DNA of 64,000 nt, from assembly GCA_004298675.1 (NCBI GenBank), contig SCRI01000080.1, forward strand, positions 6,961 through 70,960, in the 5' to 3' direction. How positions within the stretch are numbered: position 1 is the first letter of the stretch; the number at the start of each line of letters is the position of its first letter. Below, in pieces: positions 1 through 22,952 of this stretch. The notes under the pieces are model-generated. The model ran no database searches. It saw only the letters and a list, made by a program, of their open reading frames with translations, and had not been told where the DNA came from. This DNA comes from a bacterium. GTDB lineage: Bacteria; Vulcanimicrobiota; Vulcanimicrobiia; Vulcanimicrobiales; SCRA01. Both the position numbers and the translations under genes were made by a program.

Positions 1-167
1 AACTCGCTCGGAGTCAGCGTCTTGCCGTCGATCAGGCGGTACGCGAGCGACGGAGCGGAGCTGCCGGGGGCGAGGGCCTCCGTTGCGGCGGAGCCCGCCG
101 CCCAAGAAGATGGCAGTGCGAAGGCCAGCGCGAGTGTAACGAAGCCAAGAAACCACGACTGTCTCAT
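1..167 (-). CDS. thioredoxin-fold (TlpA/redoxin-like) secreted protein, N-terminal fragment; the gene runs off the window start
   Basis: Reverse-strand ATG at 167-165 forms an ATGA overlap with the upstream gene's stop at 164-166. My translation is MRQSWFLGFVTLALAFALPSSWAAGSATEALAPGSSAPSLAYRLIDGKTLTPSE: a signal peptide, then the lead-in typical of TlpA/AhpC-TSA redoxins. The catalytic motif lies outside the window. Confidence 0.45.
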   Translation of the reverse strand, partial: MRQSWFLGFVTLALAFALPSSWAAGSAATEALAPGSSAPSLAYRLIDGKTLTPSE

Positions 168-733
168 GTAGGCGAATCCTTCGCAGCCCCAACGGCGCAG
201 GGCGTGGTGAGGTTGTAGGCAGCGAACCACACGGAGAGGAGAACCAAGATCACCGAGCCGGCGATGAACGCGTCCGCGTGGATGGCGAAGAAGGCCTGGA
301 ACTTGCCGCTCGTCCGGAAGATGGCGGGGGCCGAGACACCGATCGCCGCCAGCACGAGCGGAATGACCGGCGTGCAGCACAGACTACTCGGCAGCAGGCT
401 CGCAAAAAGGCCGCCCAGCCCGAGCAATCCGGATCTTCGCGGAGCGCCGGCGTTGCCGGGGCGAGCGTTGATGTTCAGCGTCAGGGTGAGGGCAAAGCCA
501 TAGCCGAGCAGGGCGGCAGACACGGCCAGCGGTGGAGTGAGGAAGTGCAATGCGCCTGGCCTGAGGGCGCCGAAGCTGCCCGCGGGAAGCGCGATCAGGT
601 AGAAGCCAGTCAGTAGGGTTCCCAAGCCCAGCGCGGTGGCGTACGATCGCGCGGCGCCGGGGCCGGTGAAGACCAGCGTGAAGGCAGAAGCAAACCGGCG
701 GGTGTTCCCAGTGCCAACGCTCCTCACGATCAA
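164..733 (-). CDS. polytopic membrane protein with a vicinal-cysteine transmembrane motif (MerT-like CC motif)
   Basis: 189-aa ORF with several hydrophobic segments. SSLCCTPVIPLVLAAIGVS resembles, from memory, the ASACCLGPLVLIALGFS first-helix motif of MerT. TTGA overlap with the HAD gene upstream and ATGA overlap with the redoxin gene downstream. Confidence 0.6.
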   Translation of the reverse strand: MIVRSVGTGNTRRFASAFTLVFTGPGAARSYATALGLGTLLTGFYLIALPAGSFGALRPGALHFLTPPLAVSAALLGYGFALTLTLNINARPGNAGAPRRSGLLGLGGLFASLLPSSLCCTPVIPLVLAAIGVSAPAIFRTSGKFQAFFAIHADAFIAGSVILVLLSVWFAAYNLTTPCAVGAAKDSPT

Positions 734-1440: not shown

Positions 1441-2349
1441 TTACTTCAGATGCACGCTAATGGCCGCCGGTGCCACGTTGGGCGTCGGCATATGGTCGTT
1501 GTTGGCCAGCATCACGAGAATCTTCGCCTGGCCACCACGCCACTGCGAGAGATCGACGGGGATCGTCGTGGTGCAGGGCATGCCCAGCATTCCGGGCATC
1601 GACGTCGTCAGCATCATCTGCATCTCATTCATCGACATGCCGGTGTCGTGCATTAACCCTTTGCCCATCTCCATGCCTGCCGGCGTCTTCATCATCGCGG
1701 CCAGCGGCGCCGCGGGCTTCTGGGTCGTCTCGCCGCTCTGTGTGGCGAAGATGTGAATGTGACCGTAGCCAGCGACGTCGGGCTTACCCTCCAAGTCGCA
1801 GGAGAGGTCGAAGTCGCTGACCGCGACCTTGACGTCGAAGGTCCTGCCGACCGTGGCCCCGTTCTTGGGCGAGATGATGGAGATATGCGGCGTACCGGTC
1901 AGCGGTGCCGGAAGCGCCGCCGGCTGTTGCGAGGGCTCGTAATCGAATGAGACCATCGCAGGGAGGCTGTCCATCACGTGCGCGTCGGTCGCCAACACGA
2001 CCGAGAGTGTATGTTTGCCCGGTTTCAGCCCCTGTCCGGAGATCGTGAAATGATCGGAGCAGTACATGTTCGTCATGTGCTCCATGTCCATGCCGTCGAG
2101 CATCGCATGGATGTGCCCCTGCGCGGGTGCGGTAGCAGTCTTGCCGCTGTTGGCACATTCGACCTTGAAGTTCTTCGTCTCGAGCGTCACGGGGATGGCT
2201 GCGTCGGTCACCGTGGCCCCCGCCGCCGGTGAGACGATCGACACCGACGGTGCCGGCATCATTGGCGCCGCCACGGCGAGCGCAGGCAGGGTGCCCAACG
2301 CAAGCAACGCGGCCGGAACGGCGCGCGCCCACGAATAAGAATGATTCAT
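1441..2349 (-). CDS. secreted two-domain protein with GHIH motifs and a Met-rich insert (putative Cu/metal-binding, DUF4399-like repeats)
   Basis: 302 aa with signal peptide MNHSYSWARAVPAALLALGTLPALAVAAP. Two homologous modules (SIVSPAAGATV...GHIHAMLDG and SIISPKNGATV...GYGHIHIF). The second carries MMKTPAGMEMGKGLMHDTGMSMNEMQMMLTTSMPGMLGMP. Confidence 0.75.
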   Translation of the reverse strand: MNHSYSWARAVPAALLALGTLPALAVAAPMMPAPSVSIVSPAAGATVTDAAIPVTLETKNFKVECANSGKTATAPAQGHIHAMLDGMDMEHMTNMYCSDHFTISGQGLKPGKHTLSVVLATDAHVMDSLPAMVSFDYEPSQQPAALPAPLTGTPHISIISPKNGATVGRTFDVKVAVSDFDLSCDLEGKPDVAGYGHIHIFATQSGETTQKPAAPLAAMMKTPAGMEMGKGLMHDTGMSMNEMQMMLTTSMPGMLGMPCTTTIPVDLSQWRGGQAKILVMLANNDHMPTPNVAPAAISVHLK

Positions 2350-2847: not shown

Positions 2848-3177
2848 TCAGCGAGTTGTAGCGGGCGCCGGCGCGCTCATGGGTCCATGCCGTTTCATCG
2901 AGGCTTCTTTGAAGCCTTCGGACGTGGCGGCGGAGCGGCACTCGTATTTGCCGTGTCTGGTCTTGCCGTAGTACTTGGTGCCCGGCAGATGGTAGACGCG
3001 GCTCGACGTATTGACCCACACCACGGGGTCGCTGGCCGCGCACGTGGGCATCGTCGCGCTCGATGTTTGACCCATGGATCCGGCGGGCGGGCTGGCGCCC
3101 GCTCGATGGCTCTTCGCGAGAGCCGGGGTGAGGCTTAAGACGACGAGTAGGAGAGCTGCTAAGATTGAGCGGTACAT
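2848..3177 (-). CDS. small secreted protein of unknown function
   Basis: 109 aa with signal peptide MYRSILAALLLVVLSLTPALA. Contains a conserved-looking VWVNTSSRVYHLPGTKYYGKTRHGKYECRSAATSEGFK module seen in many small bacterial secreted proteins (from memory). Confidence 0.6.
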   Translation of the reverse strand: MYRSILAALLLVVLSLTPALAKSHRAGASPPAGSMGQTSSATMPTCAASDPVVWVNTSSRVYHLPGTKYYGKTRHGKYECRSAATSEGFKEASMKRHGPMSAPAPATTR

Positions 3178-3303
3178 GGATCACCTCTCGTTTCGCGTTC
3201 GTGGGGCGGCGCCGAGGGGCGCCGCTCTCCCCATCATTCCCCCCGCGCAGCCGCGGCAACCCGACGTAAGCTCCCTCACAGCAAAGGCGCCGGGCGGCTA
3301 CCT

Positions 3304-4311
3304 ATGCTCGGGATCGTGGAGCTGATTCTCTATACCGCGGAGGGTTGCCCGTTCTCGCCGCTTGCGCTCGAGCGGCTGCGGATCTTCGCCCAGGGCACGC
3401 CAGGGGTCGACGTGGAAGTGCGCGACGTAGCGCAGGCGGCCAGGTATGGTCACCGCGTCGCCGCGACGCCGACGATCATCTTTCCCAACGGCTGGCGCGT
3501 TGTTGGAACACCGGATTACGGAAGGCTACGGTCCATCCTGGCCGCCCTTTCCGGACAAGGACGGAGCATGCCGAACAAAGTCTGGTACCTCGAACAGAGC
3601 CGCTTGTTCAGAGGGGTGCCGCTGGACGAGGTCGAGCGTATGGCGGACCTCTTCCACGAATACGACTACGATCCCAAACGGCTGATCTTCGGCGAGGGTG
3701 ATCTCGGCGACGCCATCTATCTGCTCAAAGTCGGTCACGTCCGCCTCTATCGCCTCACGGAGGACGGCAAGGAGATATCCTTGGCGTTGCTCGGGCCCGG
3801 CGACGTGTTCGGTGAGCTCGCGCTCTTCGAAGAGACGCGGCGCTCGACGTTTGCCGAGACGCTCGACCGCGCCCATGTCTGCGCCGCCTCCATCGAAGAC
3901 TTCACGCAGCTCATGGCGCACCGGCCGCAACTCACGATGATGGTGGCGCGCGAGATCGCCCGCCGCCGCACCGAGGCCGAGACGCGCATCGCCGGCATGA
4001 CCTACGCCAGCGTCCGTGGGCGCTTGGCGGCCGCGCTCCAACACTTGCTCGGAGAGCACGGCGAGGATCTTCCCGGCGGCGGCAAACGCATCACGCTGCG
4101 ACTCTCCCATCAAGAGCTTGCCAACCTCGCCGGAACCTCGCGTGAAACCTGCACGGTGGAGCTGGGGCGGATGCAGCGCGCGGGCTTGCTGGAATTCGAC
4201 CGGGAGCACTGCATCGTCGTGCCGTGCCCCGAGCGCCTCCATCCTGGGACGCTGGAACGCATGCTGCACGCCATCGTCGGCAGTAATCCGCACCAGCCGC
4301 TTGCGCGCTGA
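3304..4311 (+). CDS. thioredoxin/glutaredoxin-fold domain (CPFS) fused to a Crp/Fnr-family transcriptional regulator
   Basis: 335 aa. Residues 1-85, ELILYTAEGCPFSPLA...ATPTIIFPNGWRVVGTP, form a Trx fold with a monothiol CPFS. The rest has a cNMP-binding-like barrel (LFRGVPLDEV...GDAIYLLKVGHVRLYRL) and a C-terminal HTH (LSHQELANLAGTSRETCTVELGRM). An internal ATG at 3568 is preceded by AAGGA. Confidence 0.8.
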   Translation: MLGIVELILYTAEGCPFSPLALERLRIFAQGTPGVDVEVRDVAQAARYGHRVAATPTIIFPNGWRVVGTPDYGRLRSILAALSGQGRSMPNKVWYLEQSRLFRGVPLDEVERMADLFHEYDYDPKRLIFGEGDLGDAIYLLKVGHVRLYRLTEDGKEISLALLGPGDVFGELALFEETRRSTFAETLDRAHVCAASIEDFTQLMAHRPQLTMMVAREIARRRTEAETRIAGMTYASVRGRLAAALQHLLGEHGEDLPGGGKRITLRLSHQELANLAGTSRETCTVELGRMQRAGLLEFDREHCIVVPCPERLHPGTLERMLHAIVGSNPHQPLAR

Positions 4312-4335: not shown

Positions 4336-5772
4336 ATGAAGTATCAGGAATACGACGTGGCCGTCGTGGGAGCCGGCATGGGCGGCGTGGCCGCGGCCAC
4401 CACGGCCGCCGAGCGCGGCGCGCGGGTGGCGCTGATCGAGCGTGGAGCCATCGGCGGCACCTGAATGAACGTGGGGTGCATCCCCACCAAGGCCCTGGTC
4501 AGGGTCGCCGAGTTGATTCACCTGGCACGCCGTCCGCGCAACGCCGAGCTTGGGTTCACCGTCGCGGGCGTCGACGTCGATTTTCCGCGCGTGATCGCAC
4601 GTAAGGACGAAGTAGTCGCAGACGTCGTCGGCCGCCTCACGCGTTCGCTGGAGAGTACCGAGCAGCTCGAGCTGGTGCGGGGCCAGGCGCGTTTCGTCGA
4701 CCGCCGGACCCTTGCGATCGACGGCGAGTGCCGCCTCACCGCGGGGGCCGTGATCCTCGCCTCGGGCTCGCGGCCGGCGCGGCCCACCATCCCCGGTGCC
4801 GAGGAAACGGGCTACCTCACCAATGCCTCGATCATGGCGTTGGCGCACCTTCCGCGCCGGCTCGTCGTCGTCGGCGCGGGGCCGGTGGGTATGGAGTTCG
4901 CGCAGATGTTCGCGCGCTTCGGCAGCCAGGTGACGGTGCTGTTCCGCAGCGAGTGCGTTCTGCCGCACGGGGATCCCGACATCGGCAAAGCGCTGACCGA
5001 ATATCTCGCCCGCGAGGGCTTGGAGATGGTGCCGCACGCGCGAGTGCTGCGCATGGAGCGTACGGGCGCGCACGACGGCGCTGCGCCGCGTGCCGTCATC
5101 GCCGACGTAAACGGCGAGGAGCGGCGCTTCGCGGCGGACGAAGTACTGCTCGCCATCGGACGGGAGCCCAACGCGCAGGCACTGGATCTCGCACGCGCCG
5201 GCATTACCACCACAGCTGAAGGTTGGATCGAGGCCGACCCCACGCTGCGCACGAGTGTCGAGGGAATCTTCGCCGTTGGCGATGCCATCGGGCATGCGAG
5301 CGGAAGTGAACTCTACACGCACGTCGCGGTGGCCGAAGGCGGTATCGCGGCGCGCAACGCGACCGGAGCGGCCGGCGAGCGCTTCGACCCTACCGTCATC
5401 CCCGGCGCGGTCTTCACCGAGCCCGAGGTGGCCCATATCGGATATACCGAGGCGCAGGCACGTGTGGCGGGGCTCACGCCGGTCGTTGCCACGTATCCCT
5501 TCGCTAAGATCGGCCGCGCGCGCGCCATGGGCGAACGCGAGGGGCTGATCAAAGTGCTCACGGATGCGGACAGCGGACGCGTCCTGGGTGCGCATCTCTT
5601 CGGGCCCAACGCGGGCGAGCTCGTCCACGTGGTGGCGACGGCGATGGCGACGGAGAGCCGCTCGCCACAGCCCATCCTCGATGCCATCTTCATTCACCCG
5701 ACGCTGGCCGAGGGCGTGCAGTCGGCATTCGAAGAGCTGCTGAGCGCCATGCCCGCGCGCATGGCGCACTAG
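4336..5772 (+). CDS. class I flavoprotein (pyridine-nucleotide) disulfide oxidoreductase, Lpd/GR-like, with an in-frame TGA (candidate selenocysteine) at codon 43
   Basis: My translation from ATG 4336 is MKYQEYDVAVVGAGMGGVAAATTAAERGARVALIERGAIGGT-TGA-MNVGCIPTKALV..., in frame with ORF 4465..5772. The FAD GxGxxG motif lies upstream of the TGA. The TGA occupies the first Cys of the GGTC-x-NVGC-x-P-[ST]-K signature. The C-terminal HPTLAEG dyad is present. Confidence 0.7.
4471..4487 (+). promoter_or_regulatory. hairpin GTGGGG-TGCAT-CCCCAC 6 nt downstream of the in-frame TGA (candidate bacterial SECIS core)
   Basis: Six perfect base pairs (4471-4476 with 4482-4487) and a 5-nt loop containing G. 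It is built from GTG-GGG-TGC-ATC-CCC-ACC codons. Whether SelB would bind it cannot be judged by eye. Confidence 0.4.
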
Positions 5773-6721: not shown

Positions 6722-7726
6722 ATGCAACCGCACGGCGTGATGCTGGCGACGCTCGTGGGCGAACCCTTCGATGATCCCGAGTGGATCTTCGAGACCAAGT
6801 GGGACGGCGTACGCGCGCTCTGCCACATCGATGCGCGTGGGGGCATGACGCTGCGCTCGCGCACGGGCGGCGATCTCAAGCCGGCCTTCCCCGAGCTGGC
6901 GCCGCTGCGGCGAGCGTTTTCCGGGTTGCCGCTCACCGTCGACGGTGAGATCGTGGCCCTGGACGAACACGGGCGCTCTTCGTTCCAACGGCTGCAGGCG
7001 CGCATCAACCGCGCTCGCCCCGATGCCGCCGAGGTGGCGGCGGTGCCGGTGCATTTCGTGGTCTTCGATCTGTTGGAGCACGCGGGGCGAGACGTCACCG
7101 CGCTGCCGCTCGAGCGCCGCCGCCAGCTGCTGCAGGCGGCGATCGTCGCGCGCGACGGAGTACTGGCCTTCTCTCGCGACGTGCGCGGCACCGGAAAGGC
7201 TGCGTTCGCGGCGGCGGAGCGGGCCGGCCTGGAGGGCATCGTGGCCAAGCACCTCGGTTCACACTACGTGGGCAAGCGCTCGCGTCAGTGGCTGAAGATC
7301 AAGGTGCAATTGCGTCAGGAGTTCGTGATCGGCGGATGGACGCAGCCACGCGGCAGCCGCGAACACTTCGGCGCGTTGCTGCTGGGAACGTACGACGGCG
7401 CCGGGTTACGCTACGCCGGCAGCGTCGGCACCGGATTCGCGGCGCGTGACTTGCACGAAGTGATGCTGCGCTTGGCGCCACTGAAGCAGCAGCGCAGCCC
7501 GTTTATCGCGTCATCGGCAACTCCGGCCAACGCGCATTTCGTGAAGCCCACGCTGGTGGCGGAGGTGAAGTTCGCCGAGTGGACGCGGGACGGCAGCATC
7601 CGCCAGCCGGTCTTCATCGGCTTGCGCGCCGATAAGCGGGCGCGCGACGTGGTGCGTGAGCGGCCGCAGGACGGCTCTTCCGAGTCTGCGCCAAGCTCTC
7701 GTCGAGCACCTCGCGCAGGTCGATGA
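6722..7726 (+). CDS. ligD: ATP-dependent DNA ligase, stand-alone LigD ligase domain (NHEJ)
   Basis: 334 aa. Adenylation motif I is ETKWDGVRAL (KxDG). Also has GLEGIVAKHL, KRSRQWLKIK and a C-terminal GLRADKRARDVVRE typical of LigD ligase domains. Confidence 0.9.
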   Translation: MQPHGVMLATLVGEPFDDPEWIFETKWDGVRALCHIDARGGMTLRSRTGGDLKPAFPELAPLRRAFSGLPLTVDGEIVALDEHGRSSFQRLQARINRARPDAAEVAAVPVHFVVFDLLEHAGRDVTALPLERRRQLLQAAIVARDGVLAFSRDVRGTGKAAFAAAERAGLEGIVAKHLGSHYVGKRSRQWLKIKVQLRQEFVIGGWTQPRGSREHFGALLLGTYDGAGLRYAGSVGTGFAARDLHEVMLRLAPLKQQRSPFIASSATPANAHFVKPTLVAEVKFAEWTRDGSIRQPVFIGLRADKRARDVVRERPQDGSSESAPSSRRAPRAGR

Positions 7727-8453
7727 CGTTGGTGGCCGGCCGTGGCTTGGCGGTACGAGCCTCCACCGTCTGACCGCGCGCGCGAGCCTCGATCAACGCG
7801 GTCAACTCTTCACGATACGTATCCTTGAAGGCGGCGAAATCGAAGGTGGCGGCCATGGCATCGATCAGCATCGTCGCGGACTTGACCTCGCCGGCACTGG
7901 CTTTCTCCGACTTAGCCGGTAGATCGAGACCCTCTTGACCGACCAGCTCGTCGGCGAAATGCATCAGCTCGAGAATCAGGGCATTGCCGTGCGGCCGCAC
8001 CGCGGCAAGATGCTCGCGCGTGCGGAGGACCACCCGCGCGATCCCCACCTTCGTCCCCTTCGCCAGCACGTCGCGCAGCAGCGCGTAGGCATGGCGCCCT
8101 TTTTTCTCCGGCACCAGGTAGTAGGGGGTATCGAAGAGCATCGGGTCGATCTCCGAGGTCTCGACGAACTCCGTGATGTCGATCGACTGCGTGGCCTCGA
8201 CGTCGACGCGCTTGAAATCCTCGTCGGTCAGGACCACGTGCTTGCCCTTCTCGTATTCGAAACCGCGCACCACGTTCTCCCACGCCACGTTCTTGCCGCA
8301 GATATCGCAGACGCGCACGGTGCTCAGGCGCCCGCCGTCGCGATCGTGTAGAAAGTGGAAGCGCAGCTCGTTCGGCCGTACCGCGGTAAAGAGTTGAATG
8401 GGAATGGTGACCAGACCGAAGTTGACGGTTCCGCTCCAAATCGCGCGTGCCAT
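7614..8453 (-). CDS. ku: Ku protein (NHEJ DNA-end-binding)
   Basis: Starts at the internal Met of ORF 7614..9275: MARAIWSGTVNFGLVTIPIQLFTA...DTPYYLVPEKKG...IDLREVLDESL, 279 aa. It begins 2 nt after the stop of the upstream polymerase-domain gene. The longer ORF extension overlaps that gene and is rejected. Confidence 0.9.
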   Translation of the reverse strand: MARAIWSGTVNFGLVTIPIQLFTAVRPNELRFHFLHDRDGGRLSTVRVCDICGKNVAWENVVRGFEYEKGKHVVLTDEDFKRVDVEATQSIDITEFVETSEIDPMLFDTPYYLVPEKKGRHAYALLRDVLAKGTKVGIARVVLRTREHLAAVRPHGNALILELMHFADELVGQEGLDLPAKSEKASAGEVKSATMLIDAMAATFDFAAFKDTYREELTALIEARARGQTVEARTAKPRPATNVIDLREVLDESLAQTRKSRPAAAHAPRRAPAYRRASR

Positions 8454-8455
8454 GA

Positions 8456-9364
8456 TCAGACATTCCTCCAGCGGCGAGCCGCGCGCTCGAGCGCCGGCTC
8501 CAAACGTTGCGGTGGTCCGTATGAAGCGCGCCAGGGATCGGGGAGCGCGGCGGCGCTCGCGATCGTCCAGCGCGCGAAGGCGAGCGTGGGCTCTAGGCTT
8601 GCGCCGGCGCTCCACGCCTCGACCTCGCTCCAGGCCAGCGGCATCGAGACCGGTGCGCTCCGGCGCGCCCGCACCGTGAACGGCGCCGCGAACGTCTTGC
8701 CGCGTCCGATCTGCAGATAGTCGAGCGAGACTGTGCGTGGCCGGCGGCGTTCCACGGATCGCTCCAACGTGACGTCGTTGGAGCCTTGGGCGATGTGCCT
8801 GCTCACCGTCTCGGCGAAGTCGCGTACTTGCGCATAGCCGGCGCTGGGCGCCAGTGAAACGATCACGTGCAGGCCCTTGCCGCCCGTCGTCTTGACGCGC
8901 GCGCGCAGTCCCAGCGCCGACAGTGTGTCGCGGAACAGCAGCGCAACGCGGGCAAGGCGTGCCAAACCGCATCCCGGCATCGGATCGAGATCGAAGAGCA
9001 GGATATCCGGCTCGTCGAGGTGCCCGACGCGTGACTGCCACGGATGCAACGTTACCGCGGCGAGGTTCGCGAGATAGAGCAGCGTCCTCTCGTCCTCGCA
9101 CAGGACGTAATGGATGGTACGGTCCGCCGACTCGCTGCGCAGCGCGACGGTCTTCAGCCAGGACGGGGCGCCGCGCGGTGCGTCCTTTTCGAAGAAGTGC
9201 TCGCCGTCCAGTCCGTTGGGATAGCGCTCGAGCATCAAGGGGCGCCCCGCCAAGTATGGCAGGATGCGTGCGCACACGCGCTGATAGTACGCGACGAGAT
9301 CGCCTTTGGTGATGCCCTCGCCGGGAAAGAGCACTTTCCCCGGATTGGTCACGAGCGTCGTCAT
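8456..9364 (-). CDS. stand-alone LigD polymerase/primase domain (NHEJ PolDom)
   Basis: 302 aa. MTTLVTNPGKVLFPGEGITKGDLVAYYQRV...LFDLDP...VKTTGGKGLHV is the archaeo-eukaryotic primase-like LigD PolDom signature. ATGA overlap with the upstream phosphoesterase gene. Confidence 0.9.
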   Translation of the reverse strand: MTTLVTNPGKVLFPGEGITKGDLVAYYQRVCARILPYLAGRPLMLERYPNGLDGEHFFEKDAPRGAPSWLKTVALRSESADRTIHYVLCEDERTLLYLANLAAVTLHPWQSRVGHLDEPDILLFDLDPMPGCGLARLARVALLFRDTLSALGLRARVKTTGGKGLHVIVSLAPSAGYAQVRDFAETVSRHIAQGSNDVTLERSVERRRPRTVSLDYLQIGRGKTFAAPFTVRARRSAPVSMPLAWSEVEAWSAGASLEPTLAFARWTIASAAALPDPWRASYGPPQRLEPALERAARRWRNV

Positions 9365-9945
9365 GCGTGCCGGCGCCCTTCGCGCGCGACGTCGTCGAGC
9401 GTGCGCCCCGTCAGCACCGAGGCCGGGTGCTCCGACGCAAGCCAGCGCGGGTCAGCCTGGGCGTCGGACTCCTTGATCAAAAGCCAGGCATCCTCCGTAC
9501 CCTCGCGTGCGCGCATTTTCACCAGCGCAAAACCACCGTGCAGCTTGCGGCCGTGCAGCGCGAACTTCAGCGCGCCGCGCTCGAAGGCGGCGCGTGCCGA
9601 GGTGCCCTCGAGCAACGAGTACGTGCCGGTGTCCCAAACGATCACCTCACCGGCGCCGTAGCTGCCCTCCGGAATGCGCCCTTCGAACGCCGCGTACTCT
9701 AGCGGGTGATCCTCCACGTGCACGGCTAGCCGTTTGAGCGCCGGGTCGAGCGAGGGCCCTTTGGGAACGGCCCAAGACTTCAGCACGCCATCGATTTCAA
9801 GCCGAAAGTCGTAGTGCAGACGTGAGGCGCGGTGGAGCTGCACCACAAAGCGGGCGCCTGCCGCGCGAGCGCGCGCGCCCCGCGGTTCGGGGCTGCGATC
9901 GAAATCGCGACGTTTGCGATATACGGAAAGTGAAGGGCCGGTCAC
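9361..9945 (-). CDS. stand-alone LigD 3'-phosphoesterase domain (NHEJ PE)
   Basis: YRKRRDFDRSPEP...FVVQLHRASRLHYDFRLEIDGVLKSWAVPKGPS...VEDHPLEYAAFEGRIPEGSYGAGEVIVWD matches the LigD PE domain. The start is placed at GTG 9945, 8 codons before the YRKRRDF motif. The longest ORF runs to ATG 10026, so the start is uncertain. Confidence 0.85.
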   Translation of the reverse strand: MTGPSLSVYRKRRDFDRSPEPRGARARAAGARFVVQLHRASRLHYDFRLEIDGVLKSWAVPKGPSLDPALKRLAVHVEDHPLEYAAFEGRIPEGSYGAGEVIVWDTGTYSLLEGTSARAAFERGALKFALHGRKLHGGFALVKMRAREGTEDAWLLIKESDAQADPRWLASEHPASVLTGRTLDDVAREGRRHA

Positions 9946-10102
9946 TGCAAGAGGAGGATACCCATCCCTGCGTGCTCCAATGCGTGGAGCATACGTGCAG
10001 CAAGCGACCACCCGGAGCCGGTGCAAGCGTCAGAAAGGTGGGAAGTACGCTACTGGGTGGGCGCCGGATCAATATCCGATCATTTTTGAAAGGGGCAAGA
10101 TC

Positions 10103-15550: not shown

Positions 15551-16801
15551 ATGCAGACTTCGAAGGTATTGGCTATGTTGGCCGTGGCAGCTGTCCTGGC
15601 TGGCTGCGCCGGGGGTGGAAAGGCGCAACAGCACGCGGCGGCCGCACCGCCGCTGGCCGTGGGCGTGGTCCATGCCGAGCGCGGCGAGATCGCCCGTACC
15701 GTCACGCTCGACGGCCAGATCGTGCCGCTGCTCGACTCGACGCTGTCGTTCCAACAGTCGGGGCCGATCACCGCGATCTACGTGAACGTCGGCGATCGCG
15801 TGAGCAAGGGCGAGCTGCTGGCGGCCATCGACGCCTCGACCCTGCGGGCGCAGTTGGCGCAGTTCCAGGCCCAGGCCGATCAGGCCGCGGCGCGCGCGCG
15901 CAGCTCCCAGGTCGGCATCCCCATCACGCAGGCGCAGACCTCCGCCGCCGTGGAGGCCGCCAAAGCCGCTGTCGTGAGCACCGGACTGACCTACCGGCAG
16001 GATCAACAGCTCTACCGGCAAGGCTACGTCTCGCAGAGCGCGCTGCAGGACGCGCAGTCCGCGTACGTGCAGGCGCAGAGCCAGTATCGTGCCGCCGTTG
16101 CCAACGGCGCCAGTAATCAGGCGACGCAGTTGAACGCGCAGGCGGACCTTGCCACCGAGCGGGCGGCGCGCGCGCAAGTGCGCACGCTGCGCACGCAAAT
16201 CGCGCAGACGGAGCTGCGCGCGCCCTTCGACGGCGTGGTCACGGCCCGGCTGATGGATCCCGGCGCCATGGCGGGGCCGGCAACGGCGGTCTTACGCGTC
16301 TCGCAGGTGCAGACGGTCTGGCTGAACCTCAACGTGCCCGATGCCGATCTCGCCTACGCGCGCACCGGTACGACGCTGGCGTTCCGCACGCCCTCGCTGC
16401 CCGGGCGTTCGTTCACGGCACGCATCGGTGCCATCAACGCCGTGCCCTCGCAGGGCACGCTCTCCTACCAAGCGCAGGCGCGCATTCCCAATCCCGGTGG
16501 TGTGCTGCGCGGCGGCATGCTCGTCACCGCGGTCCTGACGCAGGAGCGGCATGCAGGCGTGATCGTCGTGCCGCTGTCGGCGCTCGTACAGTCGCCGCAA
16601 GGGGCGGCCGTCTTCGTGGTCGCGAACGGTAAGGCCGCGCGCGTCGCGGTGCGCGTGGGTCTGGAGACCGATACGCAGGCCGAGGTCGCGGCCCGGGCCA
16701 TCGTGCCCGGCACGCAGATCGTCGCGCGTCCGCCGGAGAGTCTGCAAGATGGTGCCGCGGTAGCCGTGAGCGCCGCGACGGGCTCGGACACGGCGCAATG
16801 A
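15551..16801 (+). CDS. RND efflux periplasmic adaptor (membrane fusion protein, HlyD/AcrA family)
   Basis: 416 aa. Lipoprotein signal LAGCAGG, coiled-coil Gln/Ala-rich hairpin and beta-barrel region. ATGA overlap with the downstream RND pump. Confidence 0.9.
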   Translation: MQTSKVLAMLAVAAVLAGCAGGGKAQQHAAAAPPLAVGVVHAERGEIARTVTLDGQIVPLLDSTLSFQQSGPITAIYVNVGDRVSKGELLAAIDASTLRAQLAQFQAQADQAAARARSSQVGIPITQAQTSAAVEAAKAAVVSTGLTYRQDQQLYRQGYVSQSALQDAQSAYVQAQSQYRAAVANGASNQATQLNAQADLATERAARAQVRTLRTQIAQTELRAPFDGVVTARLMDPGAMAGPATAVLRVSQVQTVWLNLNVPDADLAYARTGTTLAFRTPSLPGRSFTARIGAINAVPSQGTLSYQAQARIPNPGGVLRGGMLVTAVLTQERHAGVIVVPLSALVQSPQGAAVFVVANGKAARVAVRVGLETDTQAEVAARAIVPGTQIVARPPESLQDGAAVAVSAATGSDTAQ

Positions 16802-19800
16802 TCGGCATGTTCCTGCGGCGGCCGGTGCTCACGGCCGTCTGCTCGCTCATCATTTTGATCGCCGGCGCGGTGGTGGTGCCGACCCTGCCGATCGCGCAGT
16901 ATCCACGCATCGCACCGCCCGTGGTCACCGTGAATGCGGCGTACATCGGCGCCGATGCCCAGACGGTGGAGTCGGCCGTCACGACACCGCTGGAGCAGGC
17001 CATCAACGGGGTGGAGGGGCTGCGCTACATCTCCTCCACCAGCTCGAACAACGGCGGTTCGACGATTACCTGCACCTTCCGGTTGGGGACCAATCTCGAG
17101 ACCGCCACGACGGACGTGCAGAACGCGGTGCAGTCGGCCATGGGACGTCTGCCTGACGCCGTGAAGCAGACCGGCGTCACCGTTTCCAAGAACGCCGGCA
17201 CGTTCGTGATGGCGATCGCGCTGGTCTCCGACACCCCCAAGTACGGTCCGCTCTTTCTCAGCAACTACGCCGACTTGAACCTGGTCAACGCGCTCAAGCG
17301 CGTCGCCGGCGTGAGTGACGTGCGCGTCTTCGGCTCGGGCCGTTACGCCATGCGGATCTGGATCGATCCCCGCAAGCTGGCGCAATACGGTTTGGCCGCT
17401 TCCGACGTAATCGGCGCCCTGGAGGAGCAGAACGTCAACGTTGCCGCCGGTGCCATCGGCTCTCAGCCCGCGCCGGCGAACCAGCCGTACACCTATACCG
17501 TGCGCGCCGTGGGGCGGCTGACCTCACCCGATCAATTCCGCCAGATCGTGCTGCGTGCCGCCGGCAATGGCGGCTACGTGCGCTTGGGCGACGTGGCGAA
17601 GATCGACCTGGGCTCCGAGAGCTACGACAACGCGATCCGCTTCGACGGCAATACCAACTCGATCGGCCTGGGAGTCTTGCAGCTGCCCACAGCCAACGCG
17701 CTCAGCGTCAGCCAAGCAGTGCGTGCCCAGATGAACGAGTTGGCCAAGGCGTTCCCGCCGGGCGTGCACTATGAGATCGCCTTCGACACCTCGGTCTTCG
17801 TGCACGAGTCGATCAAGGAAGTGCTCTTCACGCTCCTGTTCTCGATCGTGCTGGTGATCCTGGTGATCTATCTGTTCTTACAGGATCCGCGCGCCACGCT
17901 CATCCCGGCCGTCAGCATTCCGGTGTCGCTGATCGGCACGTTCATGATCATGAAGCTCTTCGGCTTCACGATCAACACGATCACGCTCTTCGGATTGACG
18001 TTGGCCACCGGGCTGGTGGTCGACGACGCCATCGTGGTCATCGAAAATATCGCGCGCTTCATTCAAGAGAAGAAGATGGGCGGCATCAAGGGCGCCGAGG
18101 CCGCGATGCACGAGGTACAGGGCGCCGTGGTGGCATCCTCGCTGGTGCTGATCTCCGTCTTCGTGCCGGTGGCGTTCTTCCCGGGCACGACGGGCCAGCT
18201 CTACAAGCAGTTCGCCTTGACGATCGCCGCCTCGATCTCGATCTCGTTGTTCGTCTCGCTCTCGCTCTCGCCGATGCTCTCCTCACGGCTCTTCCGGGAG
18301 CAGCACGAGTCGCACTTCCCGCCCTTCGTGTGGTTCAATCGCGGTCTCTCGGCCTTCCGCGCGCGTTACCGCCGGCTGCTGCCGGTGTTGCTGCGCGCTC
18401 GCTGGGCGGTCTTCGGCGTCTTCGTGCTGGCGTTGGCGTTGACCGGCTGGCTCTTCAAGACCACACCAACGGCCTTCATCCCCGACGAGGACCAGGGCTA
18501 CTTCATCGTCACGGAGCAGGCGCCTGAAGGTACGTCGCTGGGCAACGAGATGAAGATCGCCGACCGGGTCGAGCGCATCATCCGCCAGCAGCCGGAGGTG
18601 CAGCACATCTTCGACGTGGCCGGCTTCAGCTTCACGGGTAGCGAGCCCAACCGCGGCATCATGTTCGTCAACCTCAAGCCGTGGGCGCAGCGCCAAGGCT
18701 CCGGGCACACGCTCAGCGCCATCTTGGGGCGCCTGCGCGGCCCGCTCTTCGGCCTCGCCGGCGCGCAAGTTTTCGCTTTCAATCCACCTGCCATTCAAGG
18801 TGTGGGGAACTTTGGCGGTTTTCAGTACGAGTTGGAAGACCGCGGCAACGTCGGTCTGCCCGCGCTGACCGGCACGGCCTTTGGTTACATGATGCAGGGT
18901 AACCGTGACCCCGATCTCTCCAGCGTCTTCACGACCTTCCGCATCGACTCGCCGCAGCTGCTGCTCAACGTCGACCGCGACAAAGCCAAGGCGGTTGGGG
19001 TCTCGCTCTCCGATCTCTTCGGTACGCTGCAGGCGGAGCTCGGTTCCGTCTACGTCAACGACTTCAACTACCTCAGCCGCTCGTACCGCGTCTACGTGCA
19101 GGCCGACGAGCCGTATCGCGGCCGTATCGCCTCGCTCGGCGACCTGTACGTGCGCTCGAGCGCGGGCGGCATCGCCCCGGTGACGGAGTTCGTGAGCCCT
19201 GTCATTCAAAAGGGGGCGCCGATCATCAACCACTACAACCTCTATCGTTCGATCGAGATCAACGGGCAGCCGGCGCCGGGTAAGGGCACCGGGCAAGCGA
19301 TCGCGGCGATGGAGCAGTTGGCACAGCGGATCGATCCATCCGGCGTCGCGTACGAATGGTCGGGCCTCTCGCTCGACGAGATCGAGGCAGGCTTCCTGAC
19401 GATGCTGATCTTCGCGCTGGGCATCCTCTTCACGTTCCTGGTGCTCTCGGCGCAGTACGAGAGCTTCGCCGATCCGCTGATCGTACTGCTGGCCGTGCCG
19501 GCGGCGCTCTTGGGCGCGCTCCTGCTGCTCGGATTGCGTCACATTCCGAGCGATGCCTACGCGCAAGTGGGCTACGTGATGTTGATCGGCCTGGCTAGCA
19601 AGAATGCGATTCTGATCGTCGAGTTCGCCAACGAACAACTGCGCGAAGGTGCGGACATCGTCACCGCCGCTTCGCGCGCCGCCCAAACGCGGCTGCGGCC
19701 GATCCTCATGACGTCGATTGCCTTCGTGGTGGCGGTTTTGCCGTTGGTCTTCGCCAGCGGCGCCGGTGCCAACGCGCGCCATTCGCTGGGTACGGTGGTC

Positions 19801-19971
19801 TGCGGCGGCATGCTGCTGGCCACGTTCCTCAACCTCGCGATCACGCCGGTCATCTACGTGATCGTCAAGTCGGCCTCGCGGCGCGGCCGCGAGCTGTTCG
19901 GCCGTGGCCGTAACGGCCAGGCGCGCGCGCTGGAAGAAGAGCCGGTGCCGGTGGGCGAGGGGCACCAGTAG
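16798..19971 (+). CDS. RND efflux transporter permease (AcrB/HAE1-like)
   Basis: 1057 aa. The N-terminus FLRRPVLTAVCSLIILIAGAVVVPTLPIAQYPRIAPPVVTVNAAYIGADAQTVE aligns with AcrB from memory, and the topology is 12 TM helices with two large loops. Confidence 0.95.
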   Translation: MIGMFLRRPVLTAVCSLIILIAGAVVVPTLPIAQYPRIAPPVVTVNAAYIGADAQTVESAVTTPLEQAINGVEGLRYISSTSSNNGGSTITCTFRLGTNLETATTDVQNAVQSAMGRLPDAVKQTGVTVSKNAGTFVMAIALVSDTPKYGPLFLSNYADLNLVNALKRVAGVSDVRVFGSGRYAMRIWIDPRKLAQYGLAASDVIGALEEQNVNVAAGAIGSQPAPANQPYTYTVRAVGRLTSPDQFRQIVLRAAGNGGYVRLGDVAKIDLGSESYDNAIRFDGNTNSIGLGVLQLPTANALSVSQAVRAQMNELAKAFPPGVHYEIAFDTSVFVHESIKEVLFTLLFSIVLVILVIYLFLQDPRATLIPAVSIPVSLIGTFMIMKLFGFTINTITLFGLTLATGLVVDDAIVVIENIARFIQEKKMGGIKGAEAAMHEVQGAVVASSLVLISVFVPVAFFPGTTGQLYKQFALTIAASISISLFVSLSLSPMLSSRLFREQHESHFPPFVWFNRGLSAFRARYRRLLPVLLRARWAVFGVFVLALALTGWLFKTTPTAFIPDEDQGYFIVTEQAPEGTSLGNEMKIADRVERIIRQQPEVQHIFDVAGFSFTGSEPNRGIMFVNLKPWAQRQGSGHTLSAILGRLRGPLFGLAGAQVFAFNPPAIQGVGNFGGFQYELEDRGNVGLPALTGTAFGYMMQGNRDPDLSSVFTTFRIDSPQLLLNVDRDKAKAVGVSLSDLFGTLQAELGSVYVNDFNYLSRSYRVYVQADEPYRGRIASLGDLYVRSSAGGIAPVTEFVSPVIQKGAPIINHYNLYRSIEINGQPAPGKGTGQAIAAMEQLAQRIDPSGVAYEWSGLSLDEIEAGFLTMLIFALGILFTFLVLSAQYESFADPLIVLLAVPAALLGALLLLGLRHIPSDAYAQVGYVMLIGLASKNAILIVEFANEQLREGADIVTAASRAAQTRLRPILMTSIAFVVAVLPLVFASGAGANARHSLGTVVCGGMLLATFLNLAITPVIYVIVKSASRRGRELFGRGRNGQARALEEEPVPVGEGHQ

Positions 19972-20534: not shown

Positions 20535-20540
20535 GCCGGT

Positions 20541-20733
20541 ATCCTCGTTAGGCGAGGCGTCTACACGATGACATGCCGCTGCCCGGAAAGGTCGAGAGAC
20601 CCCAACGGGTGACCAGGCACCGCCGAATCAAGGCGTTACCTAATGCGGCTGAGGCCTTCGGGACTCTATAGCGTGTGGTGCTGAAGCTCGACGTTGAGGA
20701 AGAAGCCGGACCCGAATCCGGTCGATTTCTTGA
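20541..20733 (+). ncRNA. unclassified structured RNA (riboswitch-like leader, 3'UTR element or sRNA) ending at an intrinsic terminator
   Basis: Non-coding stretch with nested helices seen by eye: 20543-47/20553-57, 20561-67/20672-78 (encloses a multi-branch), 20575-79/20645-49, 20621-24/20632-35, 20651-56/20661-66 (UUCG loop) and 20706-10/20717-21. The strand is inferred from the downstream terminator. Confidence 0.35.
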
Positions 20734-21068: not shown

Positions 21069-22952
21069 GTGAAGAAGGTTATCGGGCTTCTGGCGCTGCT
21101 CTTCCTCTGCCTCACCGCAGCGGCATTGGCAGCGGATACGGTGGCGCCGGAAGCGCCGCCTTCGCCGCGGCCGGGGACGTTCGTACTGCACCTCGATCAG
21201 CGGATAGTGCTCATCGATCAAACGACGAGCGGCCCGGGCGTCACGCCGCCCGAAGGGTCCGGCTTCATCAACGGCTCACCGGCCTCGCCGCTGACGCCGT
21301 ACGATACGTTCTCGAGCGCGCCGCTGACGCCGGGCGTCGCCGGCGTCGCGCAGCTTCTGCTTGCGCCAACGTACGTGGGGCGCCGTTTCGACGTCGCCGC
21401 GACACTGGGCGCAGGCTACGTGCGCGGCAGCACGACCAACGCCGCCTACTGGAGTGGGGCGCTGCTGCCAGGCCTGAGCCCGCATCTGGGCGCGCAGGCG
21501 CTGCCGTACCGCGTCGTGTTTCCAACGCAGGCCGGGCAGGACGACGGCGCCGCCGCGCGCGCGTCGCTGCTCTCGTTCTCCGTCTCCGCACGCGACGGCA
21601 GTTTGGCGCTGCGCGGCGGCTGGTTCGATCTGCAGCAGACCGAGCGCTTTGTCTTCGCGCCCCCCGCGCTCACGAACGTGACGCCGGCCATCGGCCTCGC
21701 GACGACCGAATCGCTGGGCGGGGGAGCGCCAACGCTGGACTGGTGGACGCCGGATTCGCCGGCGCTTCCGCTGCACGGTGTCGATCTCGTTGCGCGCCAC
21801 GCGCTGGGGACGCTCGAGTTGACGGACGCAGCGCTGCCCGCGCTGCCCGGTACCTCGGCGCGCTTGACTGCGGCGTCACTGGTGATCGATCACGGCGAGG
21901 GAACGCGCTGGTCGGCGCAGATGGCGCACGTGGTGACGGGCGGCGATCTGGTGTCCACCACGGTCCTCTTCGGCGGCGACGCGCAACTGCTGCCGACGCC
22001 GCAGGGCAATCTCCCGTTGAGTCAAATCGGCGGCCAGCGCGAGAGCGTGTTCGGCGTGCGCGCAGCGTTCCACGTGGCGCGCGCTCTGAGCGGTGTGGTG
22101 GAGCTGGCGCGCTCGACCTACGCCGCCGATCACGTCGCACAACCTGGTACTGGGAAACCGGGCGGCTACGCCCATGCGGGCCTTGTGCACACGTTTGGGC
22201 GCGCGAGTCTGGCGCTGGACTGGTACCGGAACGAGCCCTACTATGCCACCGTCATCCTGCCGTACGGCGCGCCGGAGAACGTGTGGAGCGTGGCGTGGTC
22301 GTGGCCGGGGCAGTGGCTGAAGTCGAACTACCAGATGATCGACAACAGCGTGGCCAACGTCAACCGCCAAGGGTATCGCGTGGGGTACGCGCTCTCCGGT
22401 GGGCCGCTCGAGCTGGCGCTCTCGGCCGCGCGCTTCGCGCAGATCGATCCCATCACCACGGCCGCTGCCGCCACTACCGGATTCGTGGATGGCTTCTATC
22501 TGCCGCAGGACCCCGCGGCCGCGACGCTTGGGCGCCAGCAGCAGTTCGCGCTATGGGCGGCCTGGCACGCGCGCTTTGGCGACGTGACGCTCGATTACGT
22601 CGACGACACCATGCATCGCGCGGCAGTAGCGCGTGCCCCCGCGGACGCCGTTTCCTACGACGCGCCCGAGCTTGCGCTGACGCTAGCGCATCACTTCAAC
22701 GCACGCTTCTTGGCTGCGACGAGCCTGGCACGCTATGCCATGCGTGGCAGCTTCGCGCAAGGCGCCGCGACCAACGTGGACTTCGCGCAGCGCGTGGCCG
22801 TGGCGGGGCTGCAGTATCGCGAGGGCGCGCACACCGCCACGCTGGTGGAGTTCCGGCGCAGCGCGTTCGCGGGACTGCCGATCGCTGGCGGCGGGCTCTC
22901 ACCCAACTTCACGGGCAGCCTGCTGATCGTGGAGCAGCGGATCCGATATTAG
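21069..22952 (+). CDS. large secreted protein, probable outer-membrane beta-barrel
   Basis: 627 aa. Signal peptide MKKVIGLLALLFLCLTAAALA, alternating-hydrophobicity Gly/Ala/Tyr-rich sequence and a C-terminal aromatic residue (...LLIVEQRIRY), as in OMP insertion signals. Confidence 0.7.
   Translation: MKKVIGLLALLFLCLTAAALAADTVAPEAPPSPRPGTFVLHLDQRIVLIDQTTSGPGVTPPEGSGFINGSPASPLTPYDTFSSAPLTPGVAGVAQLLLAPTYVGRRFDVAATLGAGYVRGSTTNAAYWSGALLPGLSPHLGAQALPYRVVFPTQAGQDDGAAARASLLSFSVSARDGSLALRGGWFDLQQTERFVFAPPALTNVTPAIGLATTESLGGGAPTLDWWTPDSPALPLHGVDLVARHALGTLELTDAALPALPGTSARLTAASLVIDHGEGTRWSAQMAHVVTGGDLVSTTVLFGGDAQLLPTPQGNLPLSQIGGQRESVFGVRAAFHVARALSGVVELARSTYAADHVAQPGTGKPGGYAHAGLVHTFGRASLALDWYRNEPYYATVILPYGAPENVWSVAWSWPGQWLKSNYQMIDNSVANVNRQGYRVGYALSGGPLELALSAARFAQIDPITTAAAATTGFVDGFYLPQDPAAATLGRQQQFALWAAWHARFGDVTLDYVDDTMHRAAVARAPADAVSYDAPELALTLAHHFNARFLAATSLARYAMRGSFAQGAATNVDFAQRVAVAGLQYREGAHTATLVEFRRSAFAGLPIAGGGLSPNFTGSLLIVEQRIRY

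Follow-up and report, generated by a model that had tools for sequence, protein, structure and literature searches.

A candidate selenocysteine-containing class I flavoprotein disulfide reductase from a Vulcanimicrobiota genome and its relatives in other bacterial phyla

Class I flavoprotein disulfide reductases such as glutathione reductase (GR), dihydrolipoamide dehydrogenase (Lpd) and mercuric reductase (MerA) carry two redox cysteines beside the flavin: an interchange thiol that faces the substrate comes first, and the flavin charge-transfer thiol second. Replacement of a catalytic cysteine by selenocysteine (Sec), with a Sec insertion sequence (SECIS) in the coding region, is a known principle. 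In this study, we analyzed a 64,000-nt stretch of DNA (contig SCRI01000080.1 of assembly GCA_004298675.1, hereafter the window) from a bacterium of the Vulcanimicrobiota, in which a reductase gene of this fold at 4336-5772 is interrupted by an in-frame TGA at the first redox cysteine, and compared it with related loci from other genomes. Our analyses suggested that the locus is probably one functional selenoprotein gene, which is the best explanation overall.

A 2026 review, by its own description the most comprehensive inventory, lists 119 prokaryotic selenoprotein families (PMC13188914). Just two of its entries are FAD oxidoreductases, a CoA-disulfide-reductase/NADH-oxidase type (UGxP) and a type III sulfide:quinone reductase (HxxU); others related to the present case are MerT-like and MerB-like selenoproteins and a metal-binding, HMA-like protein (UxxU) named "putative mercuric reductase" (PMC13188914). 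None of the 119 families of this catalogue is a class I reductase that carries Sec in its CxxxxC motif, and neither an earlier review, nor the deep-Sep paper, nor open-access full-text searches yielded one; in addition, no model of NCBIfam release 20 is specific to a selenoprotein form of the subfamilies described below. Within the open-access literature and the searched catalogues, this is an undescribed selenoprotein family, in which the principle is known and the place is new.

The reading frame and its conserved TGA

From ATG 4336 to the TAG that ends at 5772, the forward strand holds a single frame of 478 codons, and the TGA at 4462-4464 is its sole interruption and the only disruption of the gene. 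The 42 codons before it encode MKYQEYDVAVVGAGMGGVAAATTAAERGARVALIERGAIGGT; after it come ATG 4465 and 434 further codons up to TAG 5770-5772, the translation of this part beginning MNVGCIPTKALV. The open reading frame (ORF) listing picks up 4465-5772 alone, and the public record of the gene is a "dihydrolipoamide dehydrogenase" of 435 aa (P0001). A first-pass annotation of the window, made from the letters alone, had proposed a selenoprotein with the TGA at the first redox Cys; its coordinates and sequence for the frame and the TGA matched our re-reading, and alignment to the solved structures of MerA (5x1y) and Lpd (1dxl) placed the TGA just there, at the first Cys of the GGT-C-xNxGC-IPTK motif. 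With Cys set at the TGA, a Pyr_redox_2 match in Pfam spans residues 6-335 solely when both halves are joined, and the joined protein also matches Pyr_redox and Pyr_redox_dim (212, 78.5 and 101 bits for the three domains, all above the cut-offs). UGA is an ordinary stop locally, where it terminates the upstream gene (4309-4311), as well as the own frames of several homologues.

We scanned genomes, one per species, for the DNA pattern GGN ACN TGA NTN AAY NNN GGN TGY NTN CCN WSN AAR. The scan returned at least 119 stretches from at least 118 distinct loci, with a chance expectation of less than one match by our own rough estimate. Among the matches listed, which come from Chloroflexota, Gemmatimonadota, Actinomycetota, Armatimonadota, Neomarinimicrobiota and others, all have an in-frame GxGxxG FAD (flavin adenine dinucleotide) motif upstream and reductase sequence downstream. 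The same TGA also occurs in several independent metagenomes. The aligned column holds Cys in full-length homologues and TGA in all close relatives (42-79% identity). Specifically, the database calls for the six nearest proteins (68-100% identity) and for a second tier (∼44-47%) are without exception "truncated" and start MN[VTSA]GCIPTK; in the DNA of four such loci (L001-L004), an ORF of 40-44 codons with FAD-binding matches abuts the reductase ORF, and the codon between them is TGA.

Decay of the locus in relatives, which the first-pass annotation had named as a contrary sign, was not seen: in 118 matches listed, the downstream frame is full in 77, ends at the contig or locus end in 28, and carries extra stops in 13, these last mostly in long-read metagenome-assembled genomes (MAGs). 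In the window's subfamily, the 38 codons 5' of the TGA showed dN/dS values of 0.07-0.59 at dS of ∼0.3-2, with mostly synonymous differences. It is almost certain that 4336-5772 is a real gene that is read through its UGA.

In a crude neighbor-joining tree without support values, used only for the depth and purity of the Sec clades, the Sec forms fell into several deep, internally pure clades. Group A (U-VNEGC, ∼415 aa, no tail) comprises Anaerolineae and other Chloroflexota, Gemmatimonadota, Neomarinimicrobiota, Calditrichota, Acidobacteriota and Myxococcales; groups B and B2 (U-INVGC) comprise Gaiellales and other Actinomycetota; group C, with an acidic tail, comprises Armatimonadota and Acidimicrobiia; and group D, to which the window gene belongs, is characterized by U-MNxGC and a PARMAH-type tail. 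An exhaustive search of 1.84 billion proteins or representatives at 50% clustering gave three best clusters (616, 334 and 298 bits), all of them called from the residue after Sec, and the first Cys forms appeared at no more than 271 bits; group D is therefore without a close Cys counterpart. The database entries are all truncated calls.

Hairpins after the UGA and probable selenium decoding

Two small hairpins follow the UGA (Table 1). Hairpin 1, which the first-pass annotation had described as consistent with a bacterial SECIS, begins six nt past the TGA and folds with z = −2.6; hairpin 2 had been overlooked there. We examined both in a gapless alignment of the 60 nt from the TGA, with 118 distinct sequences from the matches listed. 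The arms of hairpin 1 lie on third positions of Val, Gly, Ile and Pro codons, and they show compensatory changes at pair 12-24 (GC in 73 sequences, CG in 14) and pair 15-21 (GC 84, GU 5, AU 3, CG 3). Compensatory changes in hairpin 2 were found at pair 34-40 (U-A 39, C-G 12) and pair 35-39 (U-A 46, U-G 13, A-U 3). The A and C subfamilies have a 3-nt loop, G[G/U]U, in hairpin 2, and B and D have one of 4 nt, GGUC; no one pairing register fits this hairpin across all subfamilies, and both registers were used. Overall, 77% of the cells are paired, compared with 73.5% after shuffling (reached by none of 500 shuffles) and 35-60% with slid partners, and RNAalifold recovered both hairpins independently in five subgroups.

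Both hairpins make use of rare codons (AGG and GGG). AGG, which makes up 2.4% of the Arg codons in 48 window genes, is used in the 3' arm of hairpin 2; in the same genes GGG accounts for 18.6% of Gly and CCC for 33% of Pro codons, and hairpin 1 uses GGG. Within the D subfamily, codon entropy reaches its minimum over the first 15 codons past the TGA (0.54-0.58, gene mean 0.99). Three Cys homologues, a small control, have GGC codons and neither hairpin.

The rules for a bacterial SECIS (bSECIS) describe a loop of 3-9 nt with G in its first two positions, usually followed by G/U, and a stem of 4-16 bp at 16-37 nt from the UGA with a minimum free energy of −7.5 kcal/mol or lower (PMC13188914). Hairpin 2 fits in loop (GGUC), stem (6 bp) and distance (32 nt after the UGA), and hairpin 1 lies outside the model because its loop starts only 12 nt after the UGA. 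Hairpin 1 is thus real and constrained, but its spacing falls outside the model and hairpin 2 fits it better, so that hairpin 2 would be the likelier of the two candidate SelB-binding sites. The SECIS of E. coli fdhF, too, has GGUC as its apical loop. We propose that SelB with Sec-tRNA(Sec) would be recruited to the UGA at 4462 by the downstream structure, most likely hairpin 2, and that hairpin 1 would act as an accessory or spacer element melted by the ribosome.

Sec use is supported indirectly by related hosts, in which further genes have TGA at the CxxU or UxxC site of a known selenoprotein family. At the locus of one D-type member (P0121, locus L138), an AhpD/CMD-like gene 600 nt from the reductase reads ...SLLNGCAR-TGA-ARAHAAQ..., i.e. 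CxxU; its AhpD core domain reaches a score of 44.8 (cut-off 27.8), and a "YciW-related (seleno)protein" model matches the gene as well. At two other loci (L012 and L014), an HMA protein with GMT-TGA-PTC lies in the same operon as the reductase. Only recognizable, checked cases were relied on, as a scan of all loci for TGA-split ORFs with Cys/Sec motif filters was very noisy.

Several results weigh against selenium decoding. ARAGORN listed only tRNA-Met and tRNA-Leu for the window and gave no tRNA-Sec there or at any of the fetched loci, Pfam searches recognized no SelA, SelB or SelD among 20 large window ORFs, and tblastn with approximate E. coli SelD and SelA queries, a weak test, gave no match in the window or loci. 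These absences carry little weight, because the data are a 64-kb window plus loci and not a whole genome. The window also held no convincing further case of a TGA-split gene with coding-like flanks. As for the RNA, hairpin 2 alone, at −7.4 kcal/mol, narrowly misses the energy threshold (−20 kcal/mol for 4462-4510), it was not found in 33 sequences of the A type, the largest subfamily, and Rfam gave no match, either for the window at gathering thresholds or for 4430-4560 at E ≤ 10. Folding of 4455-4520, a check proposed in the first-pass annotation, gave an energy that is not exceptional at this G+C (z = −0.96); stability alone is therefore no evidence, and the case for RNA structure is comparative, not energetic.

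Other readings of the interrupted frame have to be weighed against these points. A change of one base, from TGC or TGT to TGA, would suffice to inactivate an ordinary Lpd or MerA-like gene, and the origin of the sequence from a MAG and the 13 matches with extra stops agree with a pseudogene or an assembly error; the same TGA, however, recurs in at least 118 species-level genomes and several metagenomes, with purifying selection on both flanks and conserved RNA structure, and we rejected this explanation as extremely improbable. Likewise, the conserved TGA, the purifying selection on the upstream codons and the otherwise normal use of UGA as a stop make code reassignment, too, very unlikely. 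If the gene were split, UGA-AUG coupling would give a 42-residue FAD-binding peptide and, separately, a protein of 435 residues, and the two would assemble to an enzyme that has only one redox Cys. It is true that an ATG follows the TGA in the window's subfamily and that gene callers annotate two ORFs, but the other subfamilies have GTC, ATC, ATA, ATT or CTC there, which cannot start a protein, with the same TGA and hairpins; the sole Shine-Dalgarno-like GGAG lies 17 nt before ATG 4465, the split would remove exactly the catalytic residue, and Met suits the hydrophobic slot of C-[VLI]-N-x-G-C. We regard separate synthesis as very improbable. Somewhat less so, yet still improbable, is a reading of UGA 4462 without selenium, in which a standard residue (Cys, Trp or Gly) would be inserted through near-cognate decoding or by a tRNA that is a suppressor or otherwise unusual, and the hairpins would aid read-through. 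The Sec machinery missing from the window and fetched loci and the closeness of hairpin 1 to the UGA would suit it, but UGA is a normal stop for the neighbors and at the homologue ends, the position is that of a catalytic Cys, a typical Sec site, hairpin 2 has the bSECIS G-[G/U] apical loop and spacing, and TGA occupies CxxU/UxxC sites of known selenoprotein families in related hosts. On this comparative evidence, UGA 4462 is very probably decoded as Sec. The selenoprotein interpretation of the first-pass annotation is supported, and the checks it proposed were, where run, judged favorable overall.

A number of further observations concern selenium-related sequences. The 33 A-type sequences without hairpin 2 (e.g. 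L049, L028 and L123) have another small, covarying hairpin ∼65 nt downstream; it reads GCCCGGCGGGC or GCUCGGAGAGC and lies ∼+62 to +76 nt after the TGA over Ala-Arg-Arg-Ala codons, with a C-G to U-A compensatory change using rare AGA, and this is farther than the usual SECIS distance. Locus L014 has two candidate selenoprotein genes inside one mer-like operon. AhpD-like (N-x-C-H-Y-TGA) or Prx-like (W-TGA-x-x-C) contexts, judged by eye only, occur at several more loci, and two DUF3179 genes, of a catalogued (seleno)protein family, lie with a TauE-family exporter near a D-type Sec reductase (L137:131-2733). Canonical Lpd with a TGA at the first redox Cys, GGT-TGA-LN[VI]GCIPSK, was seen in a Hyphomicrobiaceae MAG (L010; 551 bits against the Lpd cut-off of 408.8) and in a Pseudomonadota MAG (L037); both are without the two hairpins and may represent Sec-Lpd that relies on another SECIS, or else errors. 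An Armatimonadetes MAG (L052:3795, + strand) carries a MerA-type protein with the VYPTFAEG Tyr motif, a ...SKLSCCGE tail and a TGA at the first redox Cys, which scores 452.3 against the MerA cut-off of 454.45; the hairpin-2 sequence is present, and a MerR gene lies upstream.

Gene neighborhoods of the reductase

The window gene lies 24 nt downstream of a same-strand gene for a thioredoxin (Trx)-like domain fused to a Crp/Fnr regulator, and this Trx-Crp regulator recurs beside the reductase at three other loci (L063, L132 and L128). BLASTP of its Trx-like domain against the DF-family protein at L004 found no significant similarity, and we claim no homology between them. Farther upstream are a membrane protein with an invariant LCCT motif, a secreted Met/His-rich protein that looks like a periplasmic copper-binding one, a DoxX-sized membrane ORF and a HAD hydrolase; an unrelated Ku/LigD cluster lies downstream. 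The LCCT membrane protein adjoins the reductase at four loci (L002, L003, L063 and L091). Its ∼79 database homologues, all "hypothetical", share an invariant LPxSLCCT...P and the C-terminal Cys and include entries named Candidatus Velthaea and Vulcanimicrobiaceae, names that point to an Eremiobacterota-like host; the protein may be a metal or thiol transporter.

D-type loci contain ArsR/SmtB (CmtR-like) regulators (6 of 19), the LCCT membrane protein (5), a secreted ResA-like WCPSC redoxin (5) and the Trx-Crp regulator (3), and the operon order at L063 and L091 is membrane protein, redoxin, reductase. MerB, ArsR and a DF-family thioredoxin-like protein stand beside the reductase at L004; L136 has ArsR and a weak MerE-like protein upstream and HMA and MerR downstream; L001 has CsoR-like, HMA and HMA genes; and a multicopper oxidase occurs at one D-type locus. 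Among 68 group A loci, 34 have a MerR-family regulator, 16 a CcdA/DsbD-like protein and nine MerT, and CcdA/DsbD-like membrane proteins lie near A, C and B2 reductases. The order at L014, MerR-MerT-HMA(Sec)-DUF2703-DUF302-unknown-reductase, is the architecture of a mer operon with the enzyme in the merA slot.

In group B, a cysteine-dioxygenase-type-I-like cupin (PF05995, 50.8 bits) is encoded just upstream at nine of 20 Gaiellales/Actinomycetes loci (e.g. L026, L053, L057 and L098), a context unlike the metal-type clusters seen in the other subfamilies. DUF2703-like genes similar to that of L004 lie just upstream of Sec reductases at B2, A and C loci.

Elsewhere in the window, LigD of a non-homologous end-joining (NHEJ) cluster (6722-10026) is split into separate genes. 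An M-box (Mg) riboswitch precedes an ORF that is not a recognizable Mg transporter, and an efflux pump of the resistance-nodulation-division (RND) type is possibly a metal or drug exporter.

Table 1. Coordinates of the reductase gene, its elements and other features in the window, followed by features at related loci
Feature	Location	Strand	Basis or remark
Class I flavoprotein disulfide-reductase-fold gene, 478 residues, TGA putatively read as Sec43	4336-5772	+	Alignment, Pfam
In-frame TGA, putative Sec43, first Cys position of CxxxxC	4462-4464	+	Alignment; TGA also in L001-L004 and at least 118 genome loci
TGC, Cys48, predicted flavin-proximal partner of Sec43, within the hairpin 1 loop	4477-4479	+	Sequence
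FAD-binding GxGxxG (G12-A-G14-M-G-G17), 5' of the TGA	4369-4386	+	Pfam; purifying selection on the segment
Second Rossmann GxGxxG (G180-G185), NAD(P)H site	4873-4890	+	PF00070 over residues 175-244
HPTLAE, His454/Glu459 dyad typical of disulfide reductases	5695-5712	+	Alignment to 5x1y and 1dxl
C-terminal tail FEELLSAMPARMAH, 14 residues, no Cys	5728-5769	+	Conserved in all D-type members
Hairpin 1, GUGGGG/UGCAU/CCCCAC, 6 bp	4471-4487	+	−10.1 kcal/mol; compensatory changes
Hairpin 2, GGCCCU/GGUC/AGGGUC, 6 bp, candidate SECIS apex	4491-4506	+	−7.4 kcal/mol; bSECIS rules
Thioredoxin-like N-terminal domain (GCPFS) fused to Crp/Fnr regulator	3304-4311	+	cNMP_binding, HTH_Crp_2; weak MJ0307 thioredoxin match
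Multi-pass membrane protein, ∼190 aa, invariant LCCT, C-terminal Cys	164-733	-	No Pfam/NCBIfam family
Secreted Met/His-rich protein, 302 aa, GHIH repeats, MxM-type C-terminal stretch	1441-2349	-	Weak DUF4399, Big_7
NHEJ ligase	6722-7726	+	
Ku	7614-8447	-	
NHEJ primase-polymerase	8456-9364	-	
NHEJ phosphoesterase	9361-10026	-	
RND efflux pump with CusB/HlyD-type membrane-fusion protein	15551-19971	+	ACR_tran, 1115 bits
M-box (Mg) riboswitch	20537-20705	+	125.5 bits
ORF of 627 aa after the M-box	21069-22952	+	No Pfam match at E ≤ 1e-5
L138, AhpD/CMD-like CxxU gene	2981-3505, TGA 3264-3266	-	Split by callers into 79- and 56-residue ORFs
L014, membrane-anchored HMA protein (MerP-like), first Cys of GMTCxxC replaced by TGA	3183-3590, TGA 3351	+	Motif
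L012, HMA protein with GMT-TGA-PTC	near 6183	-	Motif
L004, DUF2703-like thioredoxin-fold protein, Cys form FEGCANHE	7434-7808	+	NF049942 "DF family (seleno)protein", 79.4 against 70

Possible function and comparison with described reductases

The class I traits are all present in the joined protein: the Pyr_redox_2, Pyr_redox and Pyr_redox_dim domains with an N-terminal GxGxxG, U43-MNVG-C48, and H454-PTLA-E459. The product, which has the class I disulfide-reductase fold, would be a homodimeric FAD enzyme in which electrons would pass from NAD(P)H through FAD to a Cys48-Sec43 pair, a redox center that we infer to be chemically a selenenylsulfide and not a disulfide. By homology with GR, Lpd and MerA, the Sec43 selenolate would be the nucleophile that meets the substrate and Cys48 would face the FAD, with the His454'/Glu459' dyad of the partner subunit in a supporting role. 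The second Rossmann beta-2 strand ends ...VTVLF-R204-S, with Phe-Arg rather than an acidic residue, which makes NADPH the likely cofactor. The D subfamily ends in a P-[AP]-[RK]-[ML]-[AST]-H signature (...SAMPARMAH in the window), and its invariant [RK]-[ML]-x-His-COOH would lie roughly at the position of the MerA Cys-Cys. As a reductase for stress or detoxification, the enzyme may act on a thiophilic metal species, with Hg(II) or thiol adducts as the leading candidates, and expression would be under metalloregulators.

The preference for a metal (Hg-type) reductase comes solely from the gene neighborhoods, and we hold this function as a tentative assignment that falls somewhat short of an even chance. 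In mer-type operons (MerR-MerT-HMA(Sec), MerB-ArsR), the Sec reductases might act as the mercury or soft-metal reductase, with the window gene in an obligately Sec-dependent branch, a possibility we put forward with reserve. If so, the Sec-Cys pair and the His-Glu dyad could stand in for the four cysteines and two tyrosines of MerA, a proposal we make just as guardedly, and the window branch could, with equal caution, be credited with a Met/His tail and an accessory membrane protein of its own. MerA (TIGR02053; 5x1y) does share the fold, the redox pair beside FAD, the probably NADPH-type cofactor site and a similar tail length, and the relatives of the window reductase occur in mer-type clusters with MerB, MerR, MerT and HMA proteins. 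MerA 5x1y was also the best solved homologue in the PDB search (297 bits), followed by Lpd and mycothione reductase; the first residue of the pair in MerA is Cys, in place of the putative Sec.

Other observations count against mercury reduction. At the protein level, the window protein has His454 where MerA has Tyr, Arg102 at the second active-site Tyr of MerA (Tyr194-equivalent, ∼55 residues past the pair), a Met/His tail instead of the C-terminal Cys-Cys, and no NmerA. It reached no curated NCBIfam cut-off (MerA 401.8 against 454.45, Lpd 393.1 against 408.8, PRK06370-type 370.6 against 629). Because three MerA-defining features fail, it is not to be filed as MerA, though it may work like MerA. 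At the level of the locus, the window has no MerR, MerT, MerP or MerB beside the gene, only the Crp-type regulator and the Cys-Cys membrane protein, and the latter was rejected as a MerT, a profile comparison (hhalign) with a MerT-like neighbor giving 20% probability. Furthermore, the other neighbors, the ResA-like secreted redoxin and the CcdA/DsbD-like proteins, fit a thiol relay equally well. The same selenoprotein would then be the NADPH-driven cytoplasmic donor of a thiol-disulfide relay, passing electrons by way of a Trx-like partner and a Cys membrane protein to a secreted ResA/TlpA-like redoxin, switched on by metal or redox sensors and resembling the logic of TrxR-Trx-CcdA/DsbD-ResA or of Scs in copper stress. 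The enzyme keeps the His-Glu dyad of true disulfide reductases; the redoxin and the LCCT membrane protein recur (five loci each) and form an operon with it at L063 and L091; CcdA/DsbD-like proteins lie near A, C and B2 members; a Trx-fold (DF/DUF2703-like) or Trx-Crp protein is encoded directly upstream; and copper genes lie near some members. On the other side, MerT imports and MerB generates Hg(II), for which a reductase is normally required, and this enzyme is the sole candidate at the MerT/MerB loci; nor has the membrane protein any detectable relation to CcdA/DsbD. We hold the relay to be a close rival, slightly less likely than the metal reductase.

If the Sec reading is true, the bacterial selenoproteome gains a widespread family, found in at least 118 species-level genomes from some eight phyla. 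Gene callers and NCBI models split the gene into a 40-residue fragment and a "truncated" dehydrogenase, and selenium dependence is therefore underestimated for lineages from soil and groundwater (Chloroflexota, Gemmatimonadota, Gaiellales, Armatimonadota and Eremiobacterota-like). If the association with mer operons reflects function, mercury detoxification would be selenium-dependent in many uncultured bacteria, and surveys based on merA would miss these genes. The conserved pair of hairpins, compact and backed by covariation, offers a candidate SECIS from non-model phyla on which selenoprotein predictors could be trained.

Compared with the fdhF-type SECIS and the bSECIS consensus (PMC13188914), the element is alike in being a coding-region stem-loop after the UGA, with a small loop that starts GGU, 6 bp and 32 nt of spacing. 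In contrast, it has an extra conserved hairpin between the UGA and the candidate apex, and a borderline energy (−7.4 kcal/mol) with no long lower stem. Among the enzymes, Lpd (TIGR01350) shares the fold, the CxxxxC position and the HPTxxE dyad, whereas the window protein, besides scoring below the Lpd cut-off, has a putative Sec in its active site, an Arg where Lpd has Glu just past the second Rossmann strand, a distinct tail and no 2-oxoacid dehydrogenase genes nearby. Plain MerA or Lpd identity was rejected on curated scores, residues and tail.

RclA (NF040477) and hypothiocyanous acid (HOSCN) reductase (NF041853) resemble the window protein in length (∼440-480 aa), in the CxxxxC pair and the retained His, and in having no NmerA, and their family descriptions name stress-induced detoxification of Cu(II), reactive chlorine and HOSCN; their known members are all Cys forms, and the window protein scores 275 and 249 against cut-offs of 740 and 650. 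The Sec-containing CoA-disulfide reductase/NADH oxidase type (TIGR03385) is likewise a bacterial Pyr_redox_2 flavoenzyme with Sec for its catalytic Cys, but that Cys is a single redox residue in UGxP, with no CxxxxC, as opposed to GGT-U-MNVGC here (79.5 against 578.8).

Animal high-molecular-weight thioredoxin reductase (TrxR) and thioredoxin glutathione reductase (TIGR01438) are class I selenoenzymes as well, with a C-terminal extension that in TrxR reaches the active site of the partner subunit. The Sec of TrxR lies in the C-terminal GCUG, its flavin-proximal CVNVGC pair is all-Cys and its SECIS is in the 3' untranslated region, whereas here the putative Sec is in the flavin-proximal pair, the tail has neither Cys nor Sec, the candidate SECIS is in the coding region, and the score is 182.7 against a cut-off of 475.85. 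According to the searched catalogues and papers, this would be the first case of Sec within the flavin-proximal CxxxxC of a class I disulfide reductase; it would be the mirror image of animal TrxR, with its Sec in the tail, and a natural test of a selenenylsulfide beside FAD.

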